From: a virus
Taxonomy: Duplodnaviria > Heunggongvirae > Uroviricota > Caudoviricetes
Virus record (IMG/VR): IMGVR_UViG_2823670853_000004
Span: 1-23,939 of that record
Reading direction: 5' to 3' (one strand)
Length of the DNA: 23,939 nucleotides
The translations under genes were made by a program, and so were the position numbers. The notes beneath the pieces are model-generated. The model had not been told where the DNA came from, did no database searches, and was given only the letters and a program-made list of their open reading frames with translations. Positions 7,565 through 20,219 of this stretch are shown piece after piece (within the stretch, counting starts at the first letter, position 1; each line of letters opens with the position of its first letter).

Positions 7565-8623
7565 TTACGCTCCGGTTTCGGCTGCGGCGGCGCTGAAATC
7601 ACCAATCTGGATGTTTTCCACCAGTGCGGCGCAGCGGTAGTCCTCAACCACATAGGCTTCATTAACGGATTCAAAGTTTTCAATCCGGTCACGTTTCGGG
7701 TTGTCGATAACTGAACGGCGGCGGGTGTCTTCCTGCCAGTAGATGGACAGGTTATCCAGACGGGTGATCAGCAGTGCATTCGGCGGGAAGAACGGCGCAC
7801 GCACGGCCTGCAGGCCACCCATGCGTTTCTGACTGATGATCATATCGGCAGCGAGTTTTTCACTGTTTTCCTGCTCTTTGTTGACCAGCGGGAAATACTT
7901 GTCAGACAGCAGTTCACGACCGCAAATCACCACCAGATCGTCATCGTCCTGGTAGACCACGTCGATAAGCTCATTAACGGCATCCATCACCACGGCGTCC
8001 AGGTTGGCATATTCGCCACCTTTACCGACTTTCACCGCGCCCGGTGTGGTTTCACCGCCCGTGGTGGTGCTGCCCATGACGTGATCCGGTGCATCCTCAC
8101 GGATTTTCTGCAGCCAGCCTTTGTTCACATCCTGTAGCAGCGGGTTTTCACTACGGTTGGAGGTTTTCGCACGCTTCACGCCGTTAAAGCCGATCATGAT
8201 GCGGTCCAGTGCCTGACGTTTCACGATGGCGTCACGGATACGCACCTGGAAATCCTGAAACTTCGCCCACAGGTCCAGCTTCGCGTAGGTCAGCACCGTG
8301 TCAAAGTTGGTCTGCTCGCATTTATATTCCACATCGACCATCAGCGTCGGATCGACAGGTTCACGCTCTTTCGCGGTGGTGTCAGTGGTTCCGGCAATGG
8401 TGCTGCCAACACCCAGCCCCAGCAGCTGACCGGACTGCTCAGTCACTGGCGTGACGTTAATCAGCGTCAGGAAAGCGGCGGACTGCTGGATCTGGTCTTC
8501 CAGCGTCTGCTGCACAGACGGCTCCACAGTGAATTTGCTGGACAGTTCTTCAACTGCCACACCGTTCAGACGCGCCAGCTGCTGCAGGTAAGCGTTAAAA
8601 GCAAAGCGGGTATTCTTCTTCAT
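7565..8623 (-). CDS. N: Major capsid protein precursor (gpN-like)
   Basis: 352 aa, P2 gpN-like length and position after scaffold gene O. Confidence 0.9.
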   Translation of the reverse strand: MKKNTRFAFNAYLQQLARLNGVAVEELSSKFTVEPSVQQTLEDQIQQSAAFLTLINVTPVTEQSGQLLGLGVGSTIAGTTDTTAKEREPVDPTLMVDVEYKCEQTNFDTVLTYAKLDLWAKFQDFQVRIRDAIVKRQALDRIMIGFNGVKRAKTSNRSENPLLQDVNKGWLQKIREDAPDHVMGSTTTGGETTPGAVKVGKGGEYANLDAVVMDAVNELIDVVYQDDDDLVVICGRELLSDKYFPLVNKEQENSEKLAADMIISQKRMGGLQAVRAPFFPPNALLITRLDNLSIYWQEDTRRRSVIDNPKRDRIENFESVNEAYVVEDYRCAALVENIQIGDFSAAAAETGA

Positions 8624-8639
8624 CGGGTTTTGTGCTCCA

Positions 8640-9473
8640 TCAGCAATTGGTCAGAGTGTCAGCGGGGGCGTTACCGCCTGTTGCACGCTGGCGGTAGTCC
8701 TGGCGGCTGTCTTCATGACTCAGCTTGTCCACCAGTTCGTTAAAGGCGGTTTGCTGTGCCTGCAGGGCAGTCTCCAGCTCAGACAGGCGTTCTTCCTGCT
8801 CAGACAGGGATTTTTCGGTGCGTGCGTTCAGGTTCTGCTGCTCAGTGGCGACCAGCTCCACGGCCTTATGCACATCAGAGAACCGGGCGTCATCGGACTG
8901 CTCTTTTTTGGTAAACAGCGCCGTGACGCGGGCAAACAGGGATGGTTTGTCGTCCTGGATTTCTTCCAGTTCGATCACCGTTTCCTCTGCAGCGGTAAAG
9001 AGATTGGCAGGATTCTGCTTGCGGTTTGCCAGCGGGTTATGGGCTGCACTGGCGCTGAATGTCAGCATTTCCGTACCCAGACTGGCAGGGTCATCAGTGG
9101 CAGCCAGGCCGACCAGGTAGGCTTTGCCCGTATCAGCGAACTTCGGGCTGACTTCCATAGAGGTGAATAATTTCTGGCCTTTTTTCACCAGTTCCACCAG
9201 GGACTCCGTTGGCTCAACGTCGGCATACAGCGCCATCTTGCCCGCCAGCGGACCTTCCGTGATTTCTTCAGCAAACAGCGCCGTCACCTTGCCGTAGCGG
9301 TTAAAGGTGCTGTCCGGCAGATAAGACTTGATGTGCTCAAGGTTAATCAGCGCGGTATACACCGCCGGGTTGTAGCTGGCTGCCATCTGTTCCAGCCATT
9401 CACGCTGGATTTCGCGTCCGTCGGTGGTGGCACCTTCCACCCCGATGCGAAAACGCTTTGCTTTCACTGTCAT
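8640..9473 (-). CDS. O: Capsid scaffolding protein (gpO-like)
   Basis: 277 aa; N-terminal FRIGVEGATTDGREI and YLVGLAATDDPASLGTE, acidic coiled-coil C-terminus; divergent from P. Confidence 0.85.
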   Translation of the reverse strand: MTVKAKRFRIGVEGATTDGREIQREWLEQMAASYNPAVYTALINLEHIKSYLPDSTFNRYGKVTALFAEEITEGPLAGKMALYADVEPTESLVELVKKGQKLFTSMEVSPKFADTGKAYLVGLAATDDPASLGTEMLTFSASAAHNPLANRKQNPANLFTAAEETVIELEEIQDDKPSLFARVTALFTKKEQSDDARFSDVHKAVELVATEQQNLNARTEKSLSEQEERLSELETALQAQQTAFNELVDKLSHEDSRQDYRQRATGGNAPADTLTNC

Positions 9474-9551
9474 GAGCCGTGCTCCGTTAGAAAAAACTTA
9501 CTGGAGCCTTATGGTTGCGGTGATGGGGGCAGTGAAACAATGCGCGGTATT

Positions 9552-9569
9552 TGTACCGACAACCACACA
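9552..9569. promoter_or_regulatory. TGT-N12-ACA dyad in the divergent O/P promoter region, candidate late-activator site
   Basis: Exact TGT(accgacaaccac)ACA; centre 55.5 bp upstream of P ATG and 87.5 bp upstream of O ATG. Which promoter it serves cannot be decided from sequence. Confidence 0.4.
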
Positions 9570-9615
9570 AACCGCAGGCGGGGAAAGCCTTCATTCAAGG
9601 CTGTAGGTTTGTGCC

Positions 9616-11382
9616 ATGAACACCACACTGACACCCGCAGATCTCGATCCCCGTCGGCAGGCCATGCTGCTGTACTTTCAGGGATACCGCGTAGCCCGCA
9701 TTGCTGAAATGCTGGGCGAGAAAGTTGCAACCGTTCACAGCTGGAAAAAACGCGACAAGTGGGGTGACTATGGGCCGCTGGATCAGATGCAGCTCACCAC
9801 CGCCGCACGCTACTGCCAGCTCATTATGAAGGAGCACAAAGAAGGGAAAGATTTCAAAGAGATTGACCTGCTGGCGCGCCAGTCGGAGCGCCATGCGCGG
9901 ATCGGCAAGTTTAACAATGGCGGCAACGAAGCCGACTTAAACCCTAACGTCGCCAACCGCAACAAAGGCCCGCGCCGTCAGCCGGAAAAGAACGTTTTCA
10001 CCGATGAACAGATTGAGAAGCTGGAAGAAATTTTCCATTCCTCCATGTTCAACTACCAGCGCCACTGGTGGGAAGCCGGAAAAACCAACCGCATCCGCAA
10101 CCTGCTGAAGTCACGCCAGATCGGCGCGACCTTTTACTTTGCCCGTGAAGCCCTGATTGACGCCCTGCTTACCGGACGTAACCAGATTTTCCTTTCTGCC
10201 AGTAAGGCACAGGCTCACGTCTTTAAGCAGTACATCATCGACTTCGCCAAAGAAGTGGAGGTGGAGCTGAAAGGCGATCCGATGGTGCTTCCTAACGGGG
10301 CCACGCTTTACTTCCTCGGCACCAATGCCCGCACGGCCCAGAGTTACCACGGCAACCTGTATCTGGATGAATATTTCTGGATACCAAAATTTCAGGAGCT
10401 GCGCAAAGTGGCTTCCGGTATGGCTATTCACAAGAAATGGCGGCAGACCTATTTTTCCACACCATCCAGCCTGACCCACAGTGCTTATCCGTTCTGGTCC
10501 GGTGCGCTGTTCAACCGTGGGCGCAACAAAGCTGACAAGGTGGACATCGACCTGTCCCACAGCAATCTGGCCCCCGGCCTGCTGTGCGCAGACGGGCAAT
10601 ACCGCCAGATAGTCACCGTGGAAGATGCGGTGCGCGGCGGCTGTAACCTGTTCGACCTCGACCAGCTACGCATGGAGTACAGCCCAGACGAATACCAGAA
10701 CCTGCTGATGTGCGAGTTCGTGGACGATCTCGCGTCCGTGTTCCCGCTCAGCGAACTGCAGGCGTGCATGGTGGACAGTTGGGAAGTCTGGACCGACTTT
10801 CATGCACTGGCCCTGCGCCCGTTTGGCTGGCGCGAGGTGTGGATCGGTTATGACCCGGCAAAAGGTACGCAGAACGGCGACAGTGCCGGATGCGTGGTGG
10901 TGGCTCCGCCAGCCGTGCCGGGCGGTAAGTTCCGCATTCTTGAGCGTCACCAGTGGCGCGGGATGGACTTCCGTGCCCAGGCGGACGCCATCAAAAAACT
11001 GACTGAACAGTACAACGTGACCTATATCGGTATCGACTCGACAGGTGTCGGTCACGGGGTTTATGAGAACGTGAAAGCGTTCTTTCCTGCCGTCCGGGAG
11101 TTTGTCTACAACCCCAACGTTAAAAACGCCCTGGTACTCAAGGCCTACGACATTATCAGCCACCGCCGTCTGGAGTTTGACGCCGGACACACCGACATAG
11201 CGCAGTCCTTTATGGCAATCCGTCGCGCCACCACCGCCAGTGGCAACCGCCCGACCTATGAAGCCAGCCGCAGCGAAGAAGCCAGCCACGCCGATCTGGC
11301 CTGGGCAACGATGCACGCACTGTTTAACGAACCGCTGCAGGGCGAATCCGCCAATACCAGCAATATTGTGGAGATTTTTTGA
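9616..11382 (+). CDS. P: Terminase large (ATPase) subunit (gpP-like)
   Basis: 588 aa; N-terminus MNTTLTPADLDPRRQAMLLYFQGYRVARIAEMLGEKVATVHSWKKRDKW is P2 gpP-like; stop overlaps Q start. Confidence 0.9.
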   Translation: MNTTLTPADLDPRRQAMLLYFQGYRVARIAEMLGEKVATVHSWKKRDKWGDYGPLDQMQLTTAARYCQLIMKEHKEGKDFKEIDLLARQSERHARIGKFNNGGNEADLNPNVANRNKGPRRQPEKNVFTDEQIEKLEEIFHSSMFNYQRHWWEAGKTNRIRNLLKSRQIGATFYFAREALIDALLTGRNQIFLSASKAQAHVFKQYIIDFAKEVEVELKGDPMVLPNGATLYFLGTNARTAQSYHGNLYLDEYFWIPKFQELRKVASGMAIHKKWRQTYFSTPSSLTHSAYPFWSGALFNRGRNKADKVDIDLSHSNLAPGLLCADGQYRQIVTVEDAVRGGCNLFDLDQLRMEYSPDEYQNLLMCEFVDDLASVFPLSELQACMVDSWEVWTDFHALALRPFGWREVWIGYDPAKGTQNGDSAGCVVVAPPAVPGGKFRILERHQWRGMDFRAQADAIKKLTEQYNVTYIGIDSTGVGHGVYENVKAFFPAVREFVYNPNVKNALVLKAYDIISHRRLEFDAGHTDIAQSFMAIRRATTASGNRPTYEASRSEEASHADLAWATMHALFNEPLQGESANTSNIVEIF

Positions 11383-12413
11383 TGGGAAAGAGTAAGAAGA
11401 ACCGAGCTGCGGCGACGAAACAGCTCAAGCATAAAAGCCAAACTTCAGCCGAAGCATTCAGCTTTGGCGATCCCGTTCCTGTTCTGGACCGCCGCGAACT
11501 GCTGGACTATGTGGAATGCGTACAGACAGATCGCTGGTATGAGCCACCAGTAAGCTTTGACGGACTGGCGCGCACCTTCCGCGCTGCCGTGCATCACAGT
11601 TCACCAATTGCGGTGAAATGCAACATTCTGACCAGTACCTACATCCCTCACCCGCTGCTCAGCCAGCAGGCTTTTTCACGTTTTGTGCAGGACTATCTGG
11701 TATTTGGTAACGCCTACCTGGAGAAACGCACGAACCGCTTCGGTGAAGTTATCGCCCTTGATCCTGCTCTGGCAAAATACACCCGACGCGGGTTAGACCT
11801 GGATACCTACTGGTTTGTGCAATACGGTATGACAACCCAGCCGTATCAGTTCACGAAAGGCAGCATTTTTCATCTGATGGAACCGGATATTAATCAGGAG
11901 ATCTACGGCCTGCCCGGCTATCTTTCTGCCATCCCATCCGCTTTGCTCAACGAGTCCGCCACGCTGTTCCGCCGGAAGTATTACATTAACGGTAGTCATG
12001 CAGGCTTCATCATGTACATGACCGATGCCGCGCAGAACCAGGAGGATGTGAACAACCTCCGCAATGCGATGAAAAGCGCCAAAGGCCCTGGCAACTTCCG
12101 CAATCTGTTTATGTACTCGCCTAACGGCAAAAAGGACGGACTTCAGATTATCCCGTTGTCAGAAGTCGCAGCGAAGGATGAGTTTCTGAATATCAAAAAC
12201 GTGAGCCGTGATGACATGATGGCTGCGCACCGCGTGCCGCCACAAATGATGGGGATAATGCCTAGTAATGTCGGGGGGTTTGGGGATGTGGAGAAGGCCG
12301 CGAAGGTTTTTGTAAAAAATGAATTGAAACCACTTCAGCAAAGGCTAATCGAAATTAATAACTGGCTATGTGAGGATGTTATTCTATTCCAAAAATATTC
12401 GTTCAAAGAATAA
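11379..12413 (+). CDS. Q: Portal (capsid vertex) protein (gpQ-like)
   Basis: 344 aa, same length as P2 gpQ; translationally coupled to P. Confidence 0.9.
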   Translation: MMGKSKKNRAAATKQLKHKSQTSAEAFSFGDPVPVLDRRELLDYVECVQTDRWYEPPVSFDGLARTFRAAVHHSSPIAVKCNILTSTYIPHPLLSQQAFSRFVQDYLVFGNAYLEKRTNRFGEVIALDPALAKYTRRGLDLDTYWFVQYGMTTQPYQFTKGSIFHLMEPDINQEIYGLPGYLSAIPSALLNESATLFRRKYYINGSHAGFIMYMTDAAQNQEDVNNLRNAMKSAKGPGNFRNLFMYSPNGKKDGLQIIPLSEVAAKDEFLNIKNVSRDDMMAAHRVPPQMMGIMPSNVGGFGDVEKAAKVFVKNELKPLQQRLIEINNWLCEDVILFQKYSFKE

Positions 12414-12429
12414 CATCCCTCACGTGCAA

Positions 12430-12464
12430 TATAACAAACAAAAAAATTTTGTTTGTTATATTTT
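12430..12464. terminator. Bidirectional hairpin between convergent Q and the GmrSD-like gene; T-run on plus strand
   Basis: Perfect inverted repeat TATAACAAACAAAA (12430-12443), loop AAA, TTTTGTTTGTTATA (12447-12460), followed by TTTT (12461-12464). Stem is AT-rich, so strength is uncertain. The minus-strand stop codon of the GmrSD-like gene (12456-12458) lies inside the right arm. Confidence 0.5.
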
Positions 12465-14039
12465 ACCTGTCATAGCTTTTAAAGCAAGTTCATTTAAATC
12501 CTCTTCGCGCTGGTTTATAAAATCACCATAAGCACTCTTTCCATTCCGTAGATTCGGATGAATCACCGCAGCATCAAAGATCATATCCCTCTCAGCCTCA
12601 TGCACTGTTGGAAAGTACACATCAGGATTCGAATCTGAAATTTGATTATTATCCTGAGCAGTTAAAAATGCAATATTAGCTATTATATTTGACTCATGAA
12701 ATGGAATTCCTTGCCTAGCCAGGTATGCCTTCGGATATATGTGGTGGAATTGTCTTGAATTATATGCTGACAAAGATGTATCAAGGTCAACCACCTTGCC
12801 TGTAATAAAACTCCGTGGAGACAACTGAGCTAACAAGCAAATAGATGCTTTTGCTGCTGAGGAATTAATTCTCCAAGTTTTTCTAAAAAACCCGGTTTCA
12901 ATTTTAGGTACTGGTTGAATATAATCATCTGGAGTACTTATAACGCTATCCATGGCGATAACATCCTCCATAACATAGGTGTTTGTTCCTGCTTTATATC
13001 TTTGCGAAAATGCACAACACCAAAACCATCTTTTAATTGAACTATATTGATAACCCGTTGGGCGAGAGACCTTTGAGAAAAAATAGGTTATAGGTACTAA
13101 CATTATTGGGAATGGTAAAAAAATTGAATTTTTTATTTTTAGATCATTAGCTAAAAAATCAACGGCATTGCGGATACCTCTTTTTAAATCCTCCATTGCG
13201 GATAGAAGAGTTGTTGGATCAATGTCAATCAAAGTATCAGAATCAATCTTCTTATTGATTATTGCCGTCAAACAACGCATCAAAAGAATTTCATCAATCT
13301 GCTCATATCCAACTGACGCAAGATATTCTTTTAATGAATCCATTTCTGTGCGCAAATCAAATTTTTCTGACCATGTCCAAGCCGTTAGCAACTCAATTGT
13401 ACTTAAACTTGTACCAGATGAGTTAATTCTCTGGAATATTCTACAAACTTCTTGATTACTTCTTTCTTTAATCGTAACAATAGGGAACTCATAATCTTTA
13501 AATTTATCAACTAAATTTGCGATTCTATCTTGCTCATCTGCCGGGAATCGTCTTAATTCAGGCAGTAGTTTTGAGGTATCAAGAATACTGCTTAATGCAA
13601 CACTATTTTTTCCTTTTGGTATATCGACAACATTGCAAAAACTATCCGTAGCAGGAATATAATGTATATTAAATCTAGATGCCAAATCACTGTTTTCTGT
13701 TTTCCTGTGGGCATTGAATACTCCAAATAAAGTTGTTAACCGCTGCTGCCCATCCAAAACATAATTAACAGGATAATCTTCTTTCACGTCAGGAAGATGA
13801 AAACCTCCTACATTTCTTTCAAACTTTAACGGTGTCTTTGTTGACCATAATAACAACGAGCCAACAGGGTAACCACTATAAATGGAGTCAATCAAACCTA
13901 ATATCTGCTCATCCGTCCATACGAAATCACGTTGAAACGCAGGAATTTTAATATTTCCACGGGTAACATCATCCAATAAAGATGCTAATCTTTGGTTACC
14001 TGAATCAATCTTTTTCTTAGAGTTTACATTATTTTCCAT
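12456..14039 (-). CDS. DUF262/DUF1524 (GmrSD-family) putative type IV modification-dependent restriction nuclease
   Basis: 527 aa. N-terminal DUF262 motifs IPAFQRDFVW and VLDGQQRLTTLFG; C-terminal DUF1524-type His-Me finger motifs FHHIYPKA and NIAFLTAQDNNQISDSNP. AGGA ribosome-binding site 6 nt upstream. Gene is AT-rich by eye. Confidence 0.8.
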   Translation of the reverse strand: MENNVNSKKKIDSGNQRLASLLDDVTRGNIKIPAFQRDFVWTDEQILGLIDSIYSGYPVGSLLLWSTKTPLKFERNVGGFHLPDVKEDYPVNYVLDGQQRLTTLFGVFNAHRKTENSDLASRFNIHYIPATDSFCNVVDIPKGKNSVALSSILDTSKLLPELRRFPADEQDRIANLVDKFKDYEFPIVTIKERSNQEVCRIFQRINSSGTSLSTIELLTAWTWSEKFDLRTEMDSLKEYLASVGYEQIDEILLMRCLTAIINKKIDSDTLIDIDPTTLLSAMEDLKRGIRNAVDFLANDLKIKNSIFLPFPIMLVPITYFFSKVSRPTGYQYSSIKRWFWCCAFSQRYKAGTNTYVMEDVIAMDSVISTPDDYIQPVPKIETGFFRKTWRINSSAAKASICLLAQLSPRSFITGKVVDLDTSLSAYNSRQFHHIYPKAYLARQGIPFHESNIIANIAFLTAQDNNQISDSNPDVYFPTVHEAERDMIFDAAVIHPNLRNGKSAYGDFINQREEDLNELALKAMTGKI

Positions 14040-14131
14040 TGATATTCCTCACAGGGGTAAATCTATAATAGAATTTCATAAAATCATAACGTTTTCAATT
14101 GCAACATTACAGTTAAACATCCTTGCGCGCG

Positions 14132-14150
14132 CTCGTATCCCCGCCACGCC
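14132..14150 (-). other. Candidate cos cohesive-end site
   Basis: Minus strand reads GGCGTGGCGGGGATACGAG; first 13 nt match the 186/P2 cohesive end as I recall it (GGCG[T/A]GGCGGGGAAAGCA[T/C]). Lies in a short GC-rich segment between two AT-rich cargo genes. Recalled consensus, not verified. Confidence 0.3.
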
Positions 14151-14195
14151 TGCCCGCTTTATGTAGCAGTTTTCATGCACCTGCATGATCTACGC

Positions 14196-14219
14196 AAAAG
14201 CCCGCCAGAACTGGCGGGC
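14196..14219 (-). terminator. Rho-independent terminator for minus-strand transcription from the A-side cargo genes
   Basis: GC-rich inverted repeat GCCCGCCAG/CTGGCGGGC (14200-14219) followed on the minus strand by TTTTG (complement of 14196-14199). Confidence 0.5.
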
Positions 14220-14323
14220 CTTAACACAAAAGATCCTCAAACGATCATGCGATCTCATGCAGCATAGACATGCGCGTTTATGCAGAATGTGCAAAATCGT
14301 AACATACTCAGTAAGCGTGAAAC

Positions 14324-15001
14324 CTAGAACGTGACAGCCTTGTCAAAGCCAGAAATAATTGTATAAGAAATAGACGAGTTATCAGCCTTGTTCACTTTGA
14401 ACTTGGCACCTTTGTAAGCGATAACGTCACTTCCCTTAGAATCTACAGAAAAATCTGTTGTAAATGCTGCACGAGCCATATCGTTTGCAAATTCACGATA
14501 GGTGAACTTCATTACACCGCCTGCATTTCCATTGTATTCGATAGTCTTAACCAATGAGTTACTAACTCGACACAGCCCATCAGGAACACGTTTGATAGAA
14601 ATTTCTGATGCAGTATAAGAAGTACCATTTGGCGGTGATATCTCATTTTTTGCAGCATCGTAACTAACATAATCAACATAGTTACCGATTTGCCCATAGA
14701 GATTTTTTAACGCAACAGCTTGAGGGTTATGATAATTGCGGTAAATTCCATTCCCCTCACTGCAATATGTACCAGCAGCGATAGAAGACAATGCACCATT
14801 AGCCGCACCAAGTTCTAGTACGTCCGTTTTAAATCCAGTAGCAGATGTGATAATGGGATCGCCCATGTAGGCGGTAGCACTTTGCCCAATAGCAGGCTTC
14901 ACCACTTCAATAGCAGTGATATTTCGGTTAGAAGCATGTGGCACGCAACCAGTTAGGATTACAGCAAGAGATATTGGTAACGCTACATTATTAATTTTCA
15001 T
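14324..15001 (-). CDS. Putative lipoprotein of unknown function (about 225 aa precursor)
   Basis: ORF 14324..15055 trimmed to ATG at 15001: MKINNVALPISLAVILTGC has a signal peptide and lipobox (LTGC). Mature part is Ser/Thr/Asn/Gly/Tyr-rich with alternating-hydrophobic beta-strand character, ends in Phe, two Cys. AT-rich. No family recognised. Confidence 0.6.
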   Translation of the reverse strand: MKINNVALPISLAVILTGCVPHASNRNITAIEVVKPAIGQSATAYMGDPIITSATGFKTDVLELGAANGALSSIAAGTYCSEGNGIYRNYHNPQAVALKNLYGQIGNYVDYVSYDAAKNEISPPNGTSYTASEISIKRVPDGLCRVSNSLVKTIEYNGNAGGVMKFTYREFANDMARAAFTTDFSVDSKGSDVIAYKGAKFKVNKADNSSISYTIISGFDKAVTF

Positions 15002-15025
15002 TTTTAGCCTATTATTCTTTTCTTG

Positions 15026-15060
15026 ACAAAAAACAAGGCGATATCTGATTGACATCGCCT
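15026..15060 (-). terminator. Possible weak terminator between the DinI-like gene and the lipoprotein gene
   Basis: Inverted repeat AGGCGAT/ATCGCCT (15036-15060) with an 11-nt loop, followed on the minus strand by TTGTTTTTTG. Loop is long, so weak. Confidence 0.3.
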
Positions 15061-15114
15061 CTCACTCATATGTAACCCTTTTTGATTAGTAAAAACAAGC
15101 GTCTATTGACAAAA

Positions 15115-15348
15115 TCAATGCAGCCAGCTGTCGTCTTCCCACACCTTCTGCATAATTTTCATCACTTGTTTTCTTTCTTCGTACAGTTGCAGTCCGGTCA
15201 GTTCCACACCGTTAGAGCTACCTTTACGGATACGGATTACCGTTTTGGGATACAGGGGGCGCAGATTGCGGTAAAGCTCGGATTCAAGGGCGTCCAGGGT
15301 AGACTGGCTAATCTTCTGCTCTTTATCGATCATTATTTCAATGCGCAT
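15115..15348 (-). CDS. DinI-family protein (77 aa)
   Basis: ORF-track entry 15115..15420 trimmed to ATG at 15348 (MRIEIMIDKEQ...), GAGGTGA Shine-Dalgarno 5 nt upstream. Aligns by eye with E. coli DinI (MRIE start, LDAL..EL, YP, C-terminal WEDDSWL versus WESADDW). Confidence 0.75.
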   Translation of the reverse strand: MRIEIMIDKEQKISQSTLDALESELYRNLRPLYPKTVIRIRKGSSNGVELTGLQLYEERKQVMKIMQKVWEDDSWLH

Positions 15349-15358
15349 AAAAGTCACC

Positions 15359-15547
15359 TCAGCTGATGACATCCATTGAGCGGTTGTATTCGTGGCTTCT
15401 GATTTTTGCCATGAGTTCATCAGTCAATTCAGAAACCCACTGCAGAGCCAGCCCCTTCTCTTCATCACTACACTCACTAGCCGCTACAAGCTTAAGAAAA
15501 AAATCAATGCGCTGGAGCTTCAAAGACTCCAAAAAATAGTCCTGCAT
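15359..15547 (-). CDS. Small acidic protein (62 aa), first gene of the LexA-controlled operon; possible antirepressor-like (Tum N-terminal-like) protein
   Basis: Strong AGGAGGA ribosome-binding site 4 nt before the ATG; LexA box at the promoter; stop TGA lies 10 nt before the DinI-like ATG. The antirepressor assignment is by analogy with 186 tum, not sequence recognition. Confidence 0.55.
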   Translation of the reverse strand: MQDYFLESLKLQRIDFFLKLVAASECSDEEKGLALQWVSELTDELMAKIRSHEYNRSMDVIS

Positions 15548-15589
15548 CTTTCCTCCTATGACACCACACGCAATGCTGTATGCATAACC

Positions 15590-15608
15590 ACTGTTTATAT
15601 TTACAGTA
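15590..15608. promoter_or_regulatory. LexA (SOS) box overlapping the promoter of the 62-aa/DinI-like operon
   Basis: ACTGTTTATATTTACAGTA, i.e. CTGT-N8-ACAG with an AT-rich spacer, about 45 bp upstream of the 62-aa ORF start; flanked by -35-like TTTACA and -10-like TATACT on the minus strand. Confidence 0.7.
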
Positions 15609-15701
15609 TATAATAATCTTACTGATGTAAAACGTTTTTTTTACGCTTATCAGCCTGATATGCCTGGTATTATTAAGAGCACGAATTGTTAACCAGCGTA
15701 A

Positions 15702-18143
15702 TTAATACAGGTTCCGCCACTTATCATCTTCCTGCAAACGCTGGTTCCGATAGAAGATACGCAGGCCTGCTCCTGACGGAATACTGCCGCCGCGAAGGAG
15801 TAAATCGACCTCTTTCTCGCTGCCATCAAATCCTCTGGATTTCAGTTCATAGACGAGATGCTGTCGTTGATGGTCTGTAATTCGCTGTTTGTAGTCTCTA
15901 CGCCGTTTCGGTTTCACCAGACGTAACCTTGCAGCCAGTTCCCGGCGCTCCTTTTTGTTCATACTGTGCAGGTAATCGTGCAACACCTTGTCATCCATGC
16001 GGGTAATGTCCGTTCTGGGGTCCCCATCAGCTGATTTATCTTTCTCCTGTTGGTTCAAATTTTCAGCAAGGGGACAGTTATTGCCACGAGTCCAAGGGGC
16101 GCAAGCGCCCTGGTCGGCTGCCGCCTCCTGAACGTCAACGGCCTTACGAACCATTTTCCACTTCACCGCATGAGTGCAGATCTTGCCCTCTGCAATGGGT
16201 GACCAGATGCCATAAATACGAATACCGTGATCGCCATATGCGGTCGGTTCTTCGTTGATTTCATAAGCAGTTCTGATGAGGTGATATTTGCGGGGAACCA
16301 GTACGCCGCCCTGCTTCATGATGTAGGTGGCAAAACAACCAGCATCAGCAGCAGCCAGGATTGCATCAAGGCGCGGGTTATCCAGTACCGGCGCACCTGC
16401 TTTTTTGTCCCCCTGTTGCCTTGCCGACTGACCAGCCAGCAATCGCAGTTCACGGTAAGCCTGACGCCCCGGAATGCCAAAGAAGCGGAATTGCTGAACA
16501 CGATGCAGAGACGCCCAGGCATTAACGTATTCAGCGTTATCACGCAGGGATTTACCCGTTTCCTTGCTGATCTCGCCAGCCAGACCACGCCCGTCAATGT
16601 TCTTACTGATGTATTTCGCGATGTAGCTTGTTGGCGTACCTTTGCGCGGGTTTATCAGCTCAGACTTAAAGCGTGGTCCCGTGTTATTACCCAGCTCCTC
16701 GCGGTCTTCACGAATGGCAAACTTACGCAACAAAGCAGTAATGGTGCGGCGATCTTTTTTGCGCATAAAACACAACAGGTGCCAGTGAACTGTACCGTCA
16801 TGATGCGGCTCAGCCACCCGCACGCCATACCAGCGCAATCCGGCTTTGTGCATCGCCTTACGAAATGCAGCAAACATGCCGACCAGATAATCACTGCTTT
16901 GTATTACCGTCGTATTTGTCCAGGTCGGGTTGGGCCTGCCGTTATTTAGCGTGGAATGGAAACGTGACGGACAGGTGATGGTGTAGAAAACGGCGCAGTC
17001 ACCGCGCATTTCCGCGATAAGCTCCAGACCTTTAACACAGGCCATCATCTCATTGCGGCGATGCGCAGGGTTGCTGCTGCTGGCGTTTACCACATCCTCC
17101 ATGTCCAGCGTGTCGCCGTCTTCGTTCACCAGTTCATGAGAACGGAAAAACTCCAGCGACTTACGGCGCTGCTCACGTTTATGCATCACGGCTTCATAGC
17201 TGACATAGGGAGATGCTTTTTTGCTGACCAGGCAAACAGCACGCAACTGCTCTTCCCGCCATTCGCAACGCATCTTCCATAATTTCCGGTACCACCAATC
17301 GGCGCACAACATACGCGCCAGCGAACCCGGAATGAGTTCATAGGGCACGGGTTTACGGCGGTTTCTTTTCCGGCGGAGTTGCTCAAACGCAGGCGGTATG
17401 ACATCTAGTCGCAGGGTTTCTGCTGCCACCTTTTCCCATGTCTTGCGGATTTCTTCTGGCTTAACGTCATCGGTGGCATACAAATCGCCACAAGCTGCAT
17501 CAAGGCACATGCTCATATGCGCAGCAACAAGGGTGGACAGGCGTTTCACCTGATCCTGACTCATTTCAGGCAGAATCAGCAGGCCGTCCAGCCCTTCATG
17601 GCTTGCCATAAAGCGAAAAGAAGTGGATAGCTGACTGTCGCGTACATGCTCCAGTCGTTCCAGACATGGCTTAATCGTCTCACGTAAATAGCGGGAATAA
17701 GCCTTTGGCCTGCCCAGGCTGCTGAAGTATTCAATACGTTGCATCAGCGGCTTGCTGATATGGGAGGGCTGGGCGCTGACGTCTGCCAGAATGACCATGT
17801 CCGGGTTAAAACGCTGCTGCTCATGCGCCAACTTTGCCCGGCTAATGAGCTTATCCTGCTCCATTTCGCGCTGGACAGGATCACGGGATTCATTAAAGAA
17901 ATAACGCTCCCAGACCTGATCACTCAGTGCCTCGCGGCGCAGTTGTTCCTGCTCGTTATCGGTAGCGTACAGAGTGATCAGGTTTGAAAGCGCAGAAACC
18001 GGCGCAACTTCCGCCGGGTCCAGATAAGGGTTAATGGCTTTCTTAGGTAAATTCCACGAATAACCCCCGGCAGAATTCTCAATGCTACCGGAAGTTACAC
18101 TGACAAATGGATCGGCAAGACGGCCTGTGCTGATCTCTGTCAC
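15702..18143 (-). CDS. A: Replication initiation protein / rolling-circle endonuclease (gpA-like)
   Basis: 813 aa in the P2 A position, last gene of the early operon; contains a [12 protein letters not shown]-type Rep motif; start overlaps the upstream stop (ATGA). Confidence 0.9.
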
Positions 18144-19150
18144 TCACAGACTCCTGCATATACACTGCTGCACACCGCTTTATCATTCATGCCTGCCAGC
18201 AGGTCAAACTGCATACCGCCCCGAGTCGTTAAGGCCCAGTCCCGATAAGTTTCAATGCCATAAGCATCAACAGTTATGACTTCGATCCGTTTTTCAGCAC
18301 GGCGCGGATCATGCGTGGATGGAAAGAACGTTGAATTGCCACGTCTTGAACATTCCGCAACCAGTCTTTCCCACTCAGCCACTCGGCGGATTTCTTCTGG
18401 CCAGCGTTGGAAAATCTCTCCAAGTTCTGACTTGCGAGCATGAATGCATGGCATACAACCGACACGACTGCATCCCTGCATATAAAGGGGGTTAGGCTTA
18501 ATGCCATGACGTTTGGCAATAGCAAACACATCCTCATGCAGCCAATTAAGGATCGGACGATAAACATGCAGCCCCAGAGTATTGTCTGCATCGTCCTCCC
18601 ACTCAGGCAACAATGCACGTTCCGGTGATTCCTGCCCCCGGACTCCTTGCCAACTGATTACCTCATCGTATTCATCCAGAGCTGGATCGATTACCTGTGT
18701 ACGTATTGGTTCATGTTTCAGTTCAAAAGTGCAGAAACGAGCTTTTGTTGAAGGGAAGCGACCTTTCCACATGCACAAATCAAGAAACGGAACGCCGGTT
18801 GGTTTAAGGATTTCCAGTGCCCGGTAAATACGTTCCTCAGCCTCATCTGTCGACATACCACATTCCTCAACGAGAGAAATGGGCCACTTTTCCGCAATGA
18901 ATTTACGTTTCCCTTCTATCTGGCGTGTGAAATCCGCTTTGACGCGAATAATCTTGCCCAGCTTTGATTCCAGATAATCCAGATATTCTATTGTCTGTGG
19001 ATGTTCATGACCCGTATCGGCAAATACAGAAATATGCGGAACATCGTTTTCAATGGCTCTTAGCCATTGAGCGAGACTATCTTTGCCACCAGAAGTAGTG
19101 ATGACGTTAATGGTGCCTGAGGCAAAGCAACGCGGATCGATAGCATTCAT
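18140..19150 (-). CDS. PAPS-reductase-family (PP-loop ATP pyrophosphatase, DndC-like) protein
   Basis: 336 aa; N-terminal PP-loop TTSGGKDS; C-terminal Cys cluster ([11 protein letters not shown]); ATGA coupling to Dam upstream and A downstream. Confidence 0.8.
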
Positions 19151-19995
19151 GCGCGTACCTCAACGGTACGGTCAGAGCCGCTGGCAAAATCGACACCAAA
19201 CCACCCAGCTGATTTGGTGGCAATGATTTCTGTTGCAGATTTACTCTCGCCAGCTGACACGCCAATGCTGCGTTTTGTCTTGATGTAGTGGTGAGTGAAA
19301 TTGCGATACAGCGAGCGGATCAGGGATGTGTCACTGTTAGAAACAATGATCGGATGTCCTTCTGATGACCGATGTTCAAGAACGGATGCCAGGTGATACT
19401 GGTCATCTTCAGTGAAGCCGGCAGTGTGATAACCGGAAAACGTACCGTCATAAGGCGGATCGCAATACACAACATCCCCCGCGTGCAACATTGCCAGCGT
19501 TTCATCGAAGCTGGCGCAGATAAATGTTGCCCGCTGGGCTTTTTCTGCAAATGCACGAATTTCTTTTTCAGGGAAATACGGATTTTTATAATTACCGTAG
19601 GGAATGTTGAAATGCCCGCTCTTGTTATAGCGACATAAACCACGGTAACCGTGACGATTGAGATACAGGAAATATACTGCTTTCATGAAATCAGTAATTT
19701 CAGTTGAGTAATTAAACTCCTGCCTTATGTTGTAATAAGCCATCTCCCTGTTTGCGTTCTCAAATAAAACTCTGGCGCGAGATATAAACGATTCACAATC
19801 AGCGGCAACCTTTTTATAGAGGTTGATTAAATCAGGATTAATATCCGCAACCAGATAGCTGGGGTAATCCGTCTCCATCATCACTGCACAGGAACCCGCG
19901 AAAGGTTCAACCAGTCGCGGGCCAGCAGGAAGGTATTTTTTCAGTTCTGCCATAATGGCCGTTTTATTTCCCGCCCATTTCAAGATGGTGCTCAT
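19147..19995 (-). CDS. dam: DNA adenine methyltransferase (Dam family, probable GATC N6-adenine MTase)
   Basis: ORF 19147..20055 trimmed to ATG at 19995 ([11 protein letters not shown], the Dam N-terminal signature); catalytic DPPY motif ([10 protein letters not shown]); AdoMet-binding EPFAGSCAV. Start overlaps the zinc-finger gene stop (ATGA). Confidence 0.85.
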
Positions 19996-20219
19996 ACAGC
20001 ACCTCCGTTGTAATGTTTGCCTTTCAGTTCTGCGATTTCCTGACAGGTAATGCAAAGCTGCACTCCCGGAATGGCGCGGCGTCGTGCTGGCGGAATTGGC
20101 GCTTCACATTCAATGCAAAGTACGCGTGACACGCCCGGTGTTTTGGCACGGGCAGCACGGATATGGCGCTGGCGTTCTTCTTCAACGCGCTGCTGTACGA
20201 GATCCATTGCATCAGCCAT
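19992..20219 (-). CDS. TraR/DksA-family C4 zinc-finger protein
   Basis: 75 aa with CIECEAPIP...CITCQ (Cys-X2-Cys ... Cys-X2-Cys); position corresponds to the small zinc-finger ORF between B and A in P2-family phages. Confidence 0.7.
   Translation of the reverse strand: MADAMDLVQQRVEEERQRHIRAARAKTPGVSRVLCIECEAPIPPARRRAIPGVQLCITCQEIAELKGKHYNGGAV

Follow-up and report, generated by a model that had tools for sequence, protein, structure and literature searches.

A BrxU-type GmrSD-like protein as putative defence cargo between the portal gene and cos of a 186/Fels-2-like prophage

IMG/VR virus record IMGVR_UViG_2823670853_000004, a stretch of 23,939 nucleotides (nt) that was analysed whole and is here called the window, carries a gene for a protein of the GmrSD/BrxU type, which is the subject of this report. 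By its gene content the window is a prophage of the P2 family and of 186/Fels-2 type. Its genes include those for capsid (N and O), terminase (P) and the portal protein (Q), together with replication gene A and genes for a DinI/Tum-like protein, a Dam methylase, TraR/DksA, CII, Fil, the CI repressor and an integrase. The order around the gene of interest is Q, the nuclease-like cargo gene, cos, an open reading frame (ORF) of phrog_1353, DinI/Tum and A. A prophage in Escherichia coli MEI4O1-23 is 99.8% identical to the window over 11000-16000, and its copy of the cargo gene is 100% identical, with the product listed as WP_089640884.1 under the RefSeq name "DUF262 domain-containing protein".

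The cargo gene is a complete minus-strand ORF at 12456..14039, stop codon included, that starts with ATG and encodes 527 amino acids (aa), as given by the ORF list and its translation, RefSeq and PADLOC. It has a G+C content of 35%, compared with 52% in the remainder of the window, and at 35% G+C stop codons are expected to be frequent. When this segment was shuffled 500 times, the longest stop-free run had a mean of 80 codons and a maximum of 147, so an open frame of 527 codons is not a product of chance. Direct reading of the sequence places a Shine-Dalgarno-like GAGGA at 14046..14050 (minus strand), 6 nt 5' of the ATG. The sequence-only reading had quoted three motifs from the 527-aa translation, and each was found where expected: IPAFQRDFVW at aa 32-41 (nt 13917-13946), DGQQRLT with DGQQR at aa 96-100 (nt 13740-13754), and FHHIYPKA with HHIYP at nt 12732-12746. 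It was also right that the gene converges with Q, which lies at 11379..12413 on the plus strand and is separated from it by 42 nt.

The N-terminal part of the protein (aa 19-221; 13377..13985, minus strand) is a DUF262/GmrSD_N domain, of the ParB/Srx-like NTPase type, as delimited by Pfam, conservation and alignment to BrxU. PF03235 matches aa 19-221 with an E value of 2.8e-35 and 122.7 bits against a gathering cut-off of 33.2, and it also matches all 76 close homologs and all 41 distant ones. The QR, DGQQR and FxxxN motifs define GmrS (PMC4619093), and all are present here as FQRDF (Q36 R37), LDGQQR (D96-R100) and FQRIN (F202, N206), along with an xLxDS motif, GLIDS, that contributes D51 and S52 (S52 at nt 13884-13886). 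Across the 76 close homologs there is no variation at the QR pair, D51, S52, D96 G97 Q98 Q99 R100, F202 and N206. In the distant set R37, D96, G97, R100 and N206 are invariant and Q36, Q98, Q99 and F202 nearly so, while the D51-S52 pair is invariant in close and distant homologs alike. The domain aligns to BrxU residues 8-106, which puts GLIDS opposite RLFDS with its essential Ser. Mutagenesis of BrxU showed that both binding and hydrolysis of nucleotide depend on RLFDS and DGQQR (PMC8565348).

An alpha-helical linker or middle domain follows at about aa 225-375 (12915..13367, minus strand). This region is all-helical at high predicted local distance difference test (pLDDT) scores and falls inside the range of full-length BrxU alignments; it spans about 150 residues, while GmrSD linkers span 200-400 (PMC4619093). 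The remainder of the protein, about aa 376-527 (12459..12914, minus strand), is predicted to be a divergent DUF1524/His-Me (HNH) nuclease domain in which HHIYP is followed by N455 (12675-12677) and N464 (12648-12650). A profile of the family compared with the PDB recovered BrxU (7P9K) at an E value of 4e-21 in three co-linear stretches, the last of which pairs FH--HIYPK...SNvIANIclLtasdN with BrxU FHVDHIYPK...SNKLPNLQLLEGTIN. Structure prediction gave a similar answer: the AlphaFold model has a mean pLDDT of 77, high over aa 230-527, and a Foldseek search with it matched only BrxU, over the full length and with an E value of 5e-11. For profile-profile comparison, a canonical family with GmrSD_N and GmrSD_C was built from a 593-aa protein at the same Q-cos position in E. 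coli 23CRST047. Full-length hhalign against this family gave a probability of 96.7% and an E value of 4e-10 over 454 columns, in a register that pairs H433, N455 and N464 with the canonical family's invariant EH, GNL and N.

Transitive links were obtained by searching outward from the C-terminal domain. When the C-terminal 188 residues were run by phmmer on a set of 1.84 billion representatives, 716 proteins came up at E<=1e-3; of the distant full-length proteins found in this way, 41 were tested, and all of them carry GmrSD_N while 6 reach PF07510 (GmrSD_C/DUF1524), with a best E value of 8.5e-7. An NCBIfam search of the C-terminal domain found nothing. H432, H433, P436, N455 and N464 are invariant in the distant homologs, at 24-37% identity, as they are in the close ones. 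Four independent lines of evidence identify this domain as a divergent DUF1524 His-Me nuclease. The DUF262 Pfam match, the full-length hhalign, the transitive links and the invariant H-H...N...N set support the proposal made from sequence that the protein has the two-domain nuclease plan of the GmrSD family, with BrxU/SspE-type architecture.

The gene is the only cargo in a sharply delimited variable slot. Aligning the window to the 186 and P2 genomes, each joined at its ends, puts the 19-nt cohesive-end sequence GGCGTGGCGGGGATACGAG at 14150..14132 on the minus strand, 92 nt from the gene. Together with 7 conserved nt, CGCGCGC, that are recognised from the alignment and the relatives, it makes up a cos feature at 14125..14150 (minus strand), the right boundary of the slot. 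Over its first 14 bases the site matches the annotated 186 cos exactly. The P2 cos aligns more weakly: its 19-mer had no match in the window at up to 3 mismatches, the window site differing at 5 positions. Six related prophages share the first 18 nt without change, five of them share all 26 nt, and a Kosakonia prophage has the same 26 nt on the opposite strand. The cos call thus agrees both with 186 and P2 and with all related prophages examined, and it follows that the gene does lie between Q and cos, as had been claimed.

Related prophages diverge completely right after the cohesive end plus 7 nt on the Q side, and the breakpoints of the slot fall at 12299-12337 and 14114-14125. The nuclease-like gene is thus the sole occupant of the sharply bounded, variable Q-cos segment, an interval that in P2 and 186 measures just 177-186 nt. 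The left boundary lies within the portal gene itself (11379..12413, plus strand; MEI4O1-23 annotation), since homology to the relatives stops inside the last 76-114 nt of Q, and the C-terminal 25-38 or so residues of the portal protein therefore switch together with the cargo.

Comparison with genomes and published work places this slot in an established defence hotspot. Of 5,426 complete E. coli genomes, about 1,290 contain the flanks of the slot and one contains the cargo gene. In relatives the same Q-cos slot holds AIPR, PIN, HEPN plus DUF262, the canonical 593-aa GmrSD or unknown proteins, and in Klebsiella phages it holds a retron. More closely described, the occupants include a short DUF262 protein with a RiboL-PSP HEPN, AIPR, PIN_12 and the 593-aa GmrSD (slot loci L006, 1962-3945, and L002, 1960-3741), and Klebsiella phage 4LV2017 carries a retron St85 reverse transcriptase with its effector. 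At least three unrelated subtypes of DUF262 protein have been recruited to this single site. The cos-proximal region between gpA and gpQ is an experimentally supported P2 defence hotspot (PMC9122126, PMC9519451; also PMC13586616), and Rousset's table of P2 hotspot contents already contains DUF262 arrangements. The gene studied here lies between A and Q, by cos, in a segment that varies among otherwise homologous prophages. The sequence-only reading had set the gene apart from the classical tin/old position. This is literally correct, since P2 tin/old are on the A side of cos, but the location is not unusual, because Q-cos is the regular cargo slot of the 186/Fels-2-like clade and lies inside the published gpA-gpQ hotspot.

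The family to which the protein belongs is large and organised as single genes. The initial database search yielded over 3,700 DUF262 relatives, the best 120 of which are full-length at about 55% identity or more. Among species-representative genomes, those with members at 53-57% identity belong to Gamma-, Beta-, Alpha- and Deltaproteobacteria, Acidobacteriota, Opitutia (Verrucomicrobiota), Eremiobacterota and Desulfobacterota, a degree of conservation that is unusual in a defence gene. Some distant relatives, about 865 aa long, bear an extra HEPN_Swt1 domain. Among 50,697 phage records, megablast with the gene gave no match and tblastn with the protein gave distant matches only, at 30% identity or less. 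A Pseudomonas aeruginosa homolog, 57% identical, is found on the margin of a filamentous prophage of Pf type (Zot, coat, integrase), so the same single-gene cargo is found in both tailed and filamentous prophages; its gene is at 8001-9575 of loci L011-L014. The Serratia homolog stands alone between unrelated chromosomal genes, and the Kosakonia copy, 83% identical, is alone at the same site, between Q and cos, in a P2-like prophage. Around 32 further loci, the 124 nearest neighbours belong to 116 different Pfam families, the commonest being resolvase and integrase with three each, and no recurrent partner gene was found among them. In PADLOC the best model is PDC-M55C, matched over the full length at an E value of 1.6e-64. 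The HEC-05 model also matched, at 2.3e-34; HEC-05 is near-identical to BrxU (bioRxiv 10.1101/2024.01.29.577857). The ORFs flanking the gene have no PADLOC matches, and a literature search for "PDC-M55" found nothing.

Several features beside the gene complete the picture of the locus. A perfect AT-rich hairpin in the interval between Q and the cargo gene (12421..12469, with a 16-bp core at 12428-12443 / 12447-12462) was found by RNA folding, with a folding free energy of -16.7 kcal/mol and a z-score of -6.8; none of 200 shuffles was equally stable. It overlaps the stop codon of the cargo gene and is a candidate bidirectional terminator. The annotated terminators tW/tQ of phages 186 and P2 occupy the equivalent position. 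A consensus terminator scan called no G+C-rich terminator, and it did not call this hairpin, which has fewer than 3 G-C pairs. At the other end of the gene, the 70 nt from the ATG to cos (14051-14120), presumably the promoter region, are unlike those of the Kosakonia copy despite 81%-identical coding sequences. Beyond cos, on the A side, in the place of old/tin in P2 and of orf97 in 186, lies a conserved 243-aa (annotated as 225-aa) lipoprotein-like ORF with an LTGC lipobox (14324-15055, minus strand; phrog_1353), which has no Pfam or PADLOC match. Its identification with 186 orf97, suggested by equal length, was rejected on a BLASTP E value of 4.5.

The Dam methylase of the window had been suggested to bear on self versus non-self discrimination. 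This D12-class enzyme is encoded at 19147-20055 (minus strand), adjoining a phosphoadenosine phosphosulfate (PAPS)-reductase-like gene at 18140-19150 (minus strand) whose product resembles SspD (E value 4.9e-23), BrxP and DndC. The pair sits between TraR/DksA and replication gene A and could be a module with which the phage modifies DNA or counters restriction. The PAPS-reductase gene is present in 38 E. coli genomes, in 24 of them at 95% identity or more. In E. coli 98193 the same pair accompanies AIPR in the Q-cos slot, in MEI4O1-23 the identical DUF262 gene occurs with Dam only, and the Kosakonia copy occurs with the PAPS-reductase only. Methylases among the 124 neighbours of the 32 loci amount to a single C-5 cytosine DNA methylase, which is no conserved partner. 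Since these genes assort independently of the cargo, a functional link of the nuclease-like gene to Dam or to the SspD/DndC-like PAPS-reductase was rejected, and the suggested role of Dam in discrimination finds no support: Dam pairs with other cargo, and the Kosakonia DUF262 gene does without it.

We consider it probable, with moderate confidence, that the gene encodes a stand-alone BrxU-type GmrSD-like enzyme, an NTP (nucleoside triphosphate)-dependent and modification-dependent (type IV) restriction nuclease carried as defence cargo by a 186/Fels-2-like prophage. If it works as BrxU, Eco94GmrSD and HEC-06 do, the protein would be made in the lysogen from the prophage gene. Its DGQQR site would bind and hydrolyse NTP as a necessary step before DNA cleavage, licensing the C-terminal HNH site, where H433 would act as general base and H432, N455 and N464 would serve metal binding and structure. 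The predicted target is the incoming DNA of a superinfecting phage, most probably one with modified bases such as the hydroxymethylcytosine (hmC) and glucosyl-hmC of T-even phages, and its cleavage would shield host and prophage from superinfection. Mutation of the equivalent residues abolishes defence in BrxU (PMC8565348) and in HEC-06 (bioRxiv 10.1101/2024.01.29.577857).

Several observations weigh against a type IV nuclease of this kind. The C-terminal domain escapes the Pfam model: neither the whole protein nor its isolated C-terminal 214 aa matches PF07510 at E<=10, and only 9 of the 76 close homologs match it, weakly, with a best E value of 0.008. Alignment of the C-terminal parts alone by hhalign was marginal (P 0.0075, with mismatched controls at 0.16 and 0.25), and the C-terminal assignment for this reason rests on the structural, full-length and transitive evidence; the profile-profile line lends support but does not decide the matter. 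The profile check proposed in the sequence-only reading came out half in favour and half as its refuting condition foresaw: DUF262 was found directly, and DUF1524 was missed by Pfam and was established through profile-profile and transitive links. The AlphaFold model is poor over the first 100 residues, leaving the N-terminal domain at low confidence. In the predicted active site, the acidic position of the (D/E)H motif holds the invariant H432 (FHHIYPK), and the spacing between the asparagines is +9 rather than +8. The BrxU equivalent of H432 is D474, which is essential there (PMC8565348). With histidine in its place, metal use or activity may differ. The HH pair is common among other HNH nucleases, so the HHIYP site, though variant, is probably active. 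A consensus scan found no sigma-70-like promoter between cos and the ATG, promoter-like sites upstream of the gene being no commoner than in shuffles. A literature search found no published phenotype or experimental characterisation for this subfamily, and modified-base DNA as the substrate is wholly a matter of analogy. Finally, PDC-M55C, the PADLOC model that fits best, is the third gene of a multi-gene system that is listed as a candidate only.

This last point raises the idea that the gene is an orphaned gene C of PDC-M55, inactive or partly functional without its partners A and B. We think this unlikely, and distinctly so. The immediate neighbours are conserved phage features (Q on one side, cos and the phrog_1353 ORF on the other) with no partners among them, the P. 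aeruginosa, Serratia and Kosakonia copies likewise stand alone, the survey of 32 loci brought up no recurrent partner, and the catalytic residues are all intact and invariant. Its position might instead suggest a gene that serves the phage itself, by degrading host or competitor DNA in lytic growth or by processing the cos ends, since, counted from the left end, it comes first among the packaged genes and is only 92 nt from cos. Relatives, however, carry unrelated cargo in this slot, and 186 and P2 have a terminator only, so nothing in the slot is needed for packaging. Homologs moreover occur mostly in non-phage chromosomal contexts, and in E. coli the gene is far rarer than its flanks, so a service to the phage seems very improbable indeed.

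A different kind of alternative keeps the fold and the defence role and changes the trigger, which could be a phosphorothioate or another backbone or base mark (as in SspE and DndI), unmodified foreign DNA, or a phage protein; the enzyme might then nick DNA or act by abortive infection in place of classical type IV restriction. The clade stands far enough apart for PF07510 to miss it, with HH in place of D/E-H; HEC-06, another GmrSD-like protein, has a defence range unlike that of BrxU; and 53-57% identity across distant phyla would be unexpected of a protein tracking T-even-like enterobacterial phages. On the other side, no ssp or dnd modification genes are linked to the family in the 32 loci, and the SspD/DndC-like PAPS-reductase gene of this prophage assorts independently. 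We regard another trigger as possible but rather unlikely, and retain the modification-dependent restriction nuclease as the preferred reading.

A related and tentative suggestion is that GmrSD/BrxU may have a large sister clade in the DUF262 proteins of HH type (FHHI[Y/F]PK...N...N), which would be a distinct class of single-gene defence in tailed and filamentous prophages. Counted by searching with the C-terminal domain, such a clade would include at least 716 representatives at 50% clustering. Its change of a metal ligand from Asp to His, along with its unusual conservation, could reflect a different metal need, another DNA mark, or triggering by something else than modified cytosine. A possible further family member is PFLU4242 of Pseudomonas fluorescens SBW25, a DUF262/DUF1524 protein that causes plasmid cost (PMC8544851); SBW25 was absent from the loci that the genome scan brought up.

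For the P2-family defence hotspot, the gene is one more catalogued cargo, of a known kind in a known place. It also points to a sizeable GmrSD-like clade that is under-annotated in RefSeq, where the name goes no further than DUF262 because the Pfam C-terminal model misses the domain. If the clade does restrict phages with modified DNA, lysogens would resist therapeutic phages of the T-even type, and if its specificity differs from those of BrxU and GmrSD, the range of type IV-like enzymes would be wider. Current concepts are unchanged either way, as prophage-encoded GmrSD-like defence in this hotspot was already expected.

Compared with known systems, the setting resembles that of P2 old/tin and the gpA-gpQ hotspot (Rousset 2022; Vassallo 2022), with which it shares cos-proximal, non-essential, low-GC and highly exchangeable lysogenic-conversion cargo. 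The difference is one of side: in P2, tin/old lie on the A side of cos, while the 186/Fels-2-like clade, this prophage included, has its cargo on the Q side, beginning 7 nt past the cohesive end. The P2 old/tin proteins themselves are unrelated to this one. SspE and DndI, which sense phosphorothioate and also combine DUF262 with DUF1524, are about 770 aa long as opposed to 527 aa here. The sequence-profile match to SspE is non-significant (E value 0.79), and no sspABCD or dnd genes are linked to the family in the 32 loci.

Canonical GmrSD (EcoCT596 GmrS/GmrD, Eco94GmrSD) follows the same two-domain logic, with QR, DGQQR and FxxxN motifs plus an H-N-N His-Me set, and the canonical family matched at 96.7% sits in the same Q-cos slot of other E. 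coli prophages. BLASTP of the protein against that GmrSD from the slot was non-significant. The C-terminal motif of GmrSD, (I/L/V)(E/D)H(I/L/V)xPQ ... L(G/A)NLxLLxxxN, is FHHIYPK in the present protein, with one extra residue between the two asparagines, and the canonical NxxFxxKK is not recognisable. A closely comparable enzyme is BrxU of Escherichia fergusonii plasmid pEFER (PDB 7P9K/7P9M), a type IV enzyme of the GmrSD family. Identity to BrxU is only about 17-20%, its length is 587 aa compared with 527 aa, its DHIYP (D474) corresponds to HHIYP with a 2-residue deletion, and it belongs to a plasmid island of BREX, Hma and type I restriction-modification genes, whereas the protein described here is solo prophage cargo. 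The substrates of BrxU are 5-methylcytosine, hmC and glucosyl-hmC, and those of the prophage protein can be suggested by analogy only. Both are single polypeptides that join DUF262, a helical linker and an HNH domain, and both carry xLxDS (RLFDS in BrxU, GLIDS here), DGQQR and xHIYPK followed by N...N.

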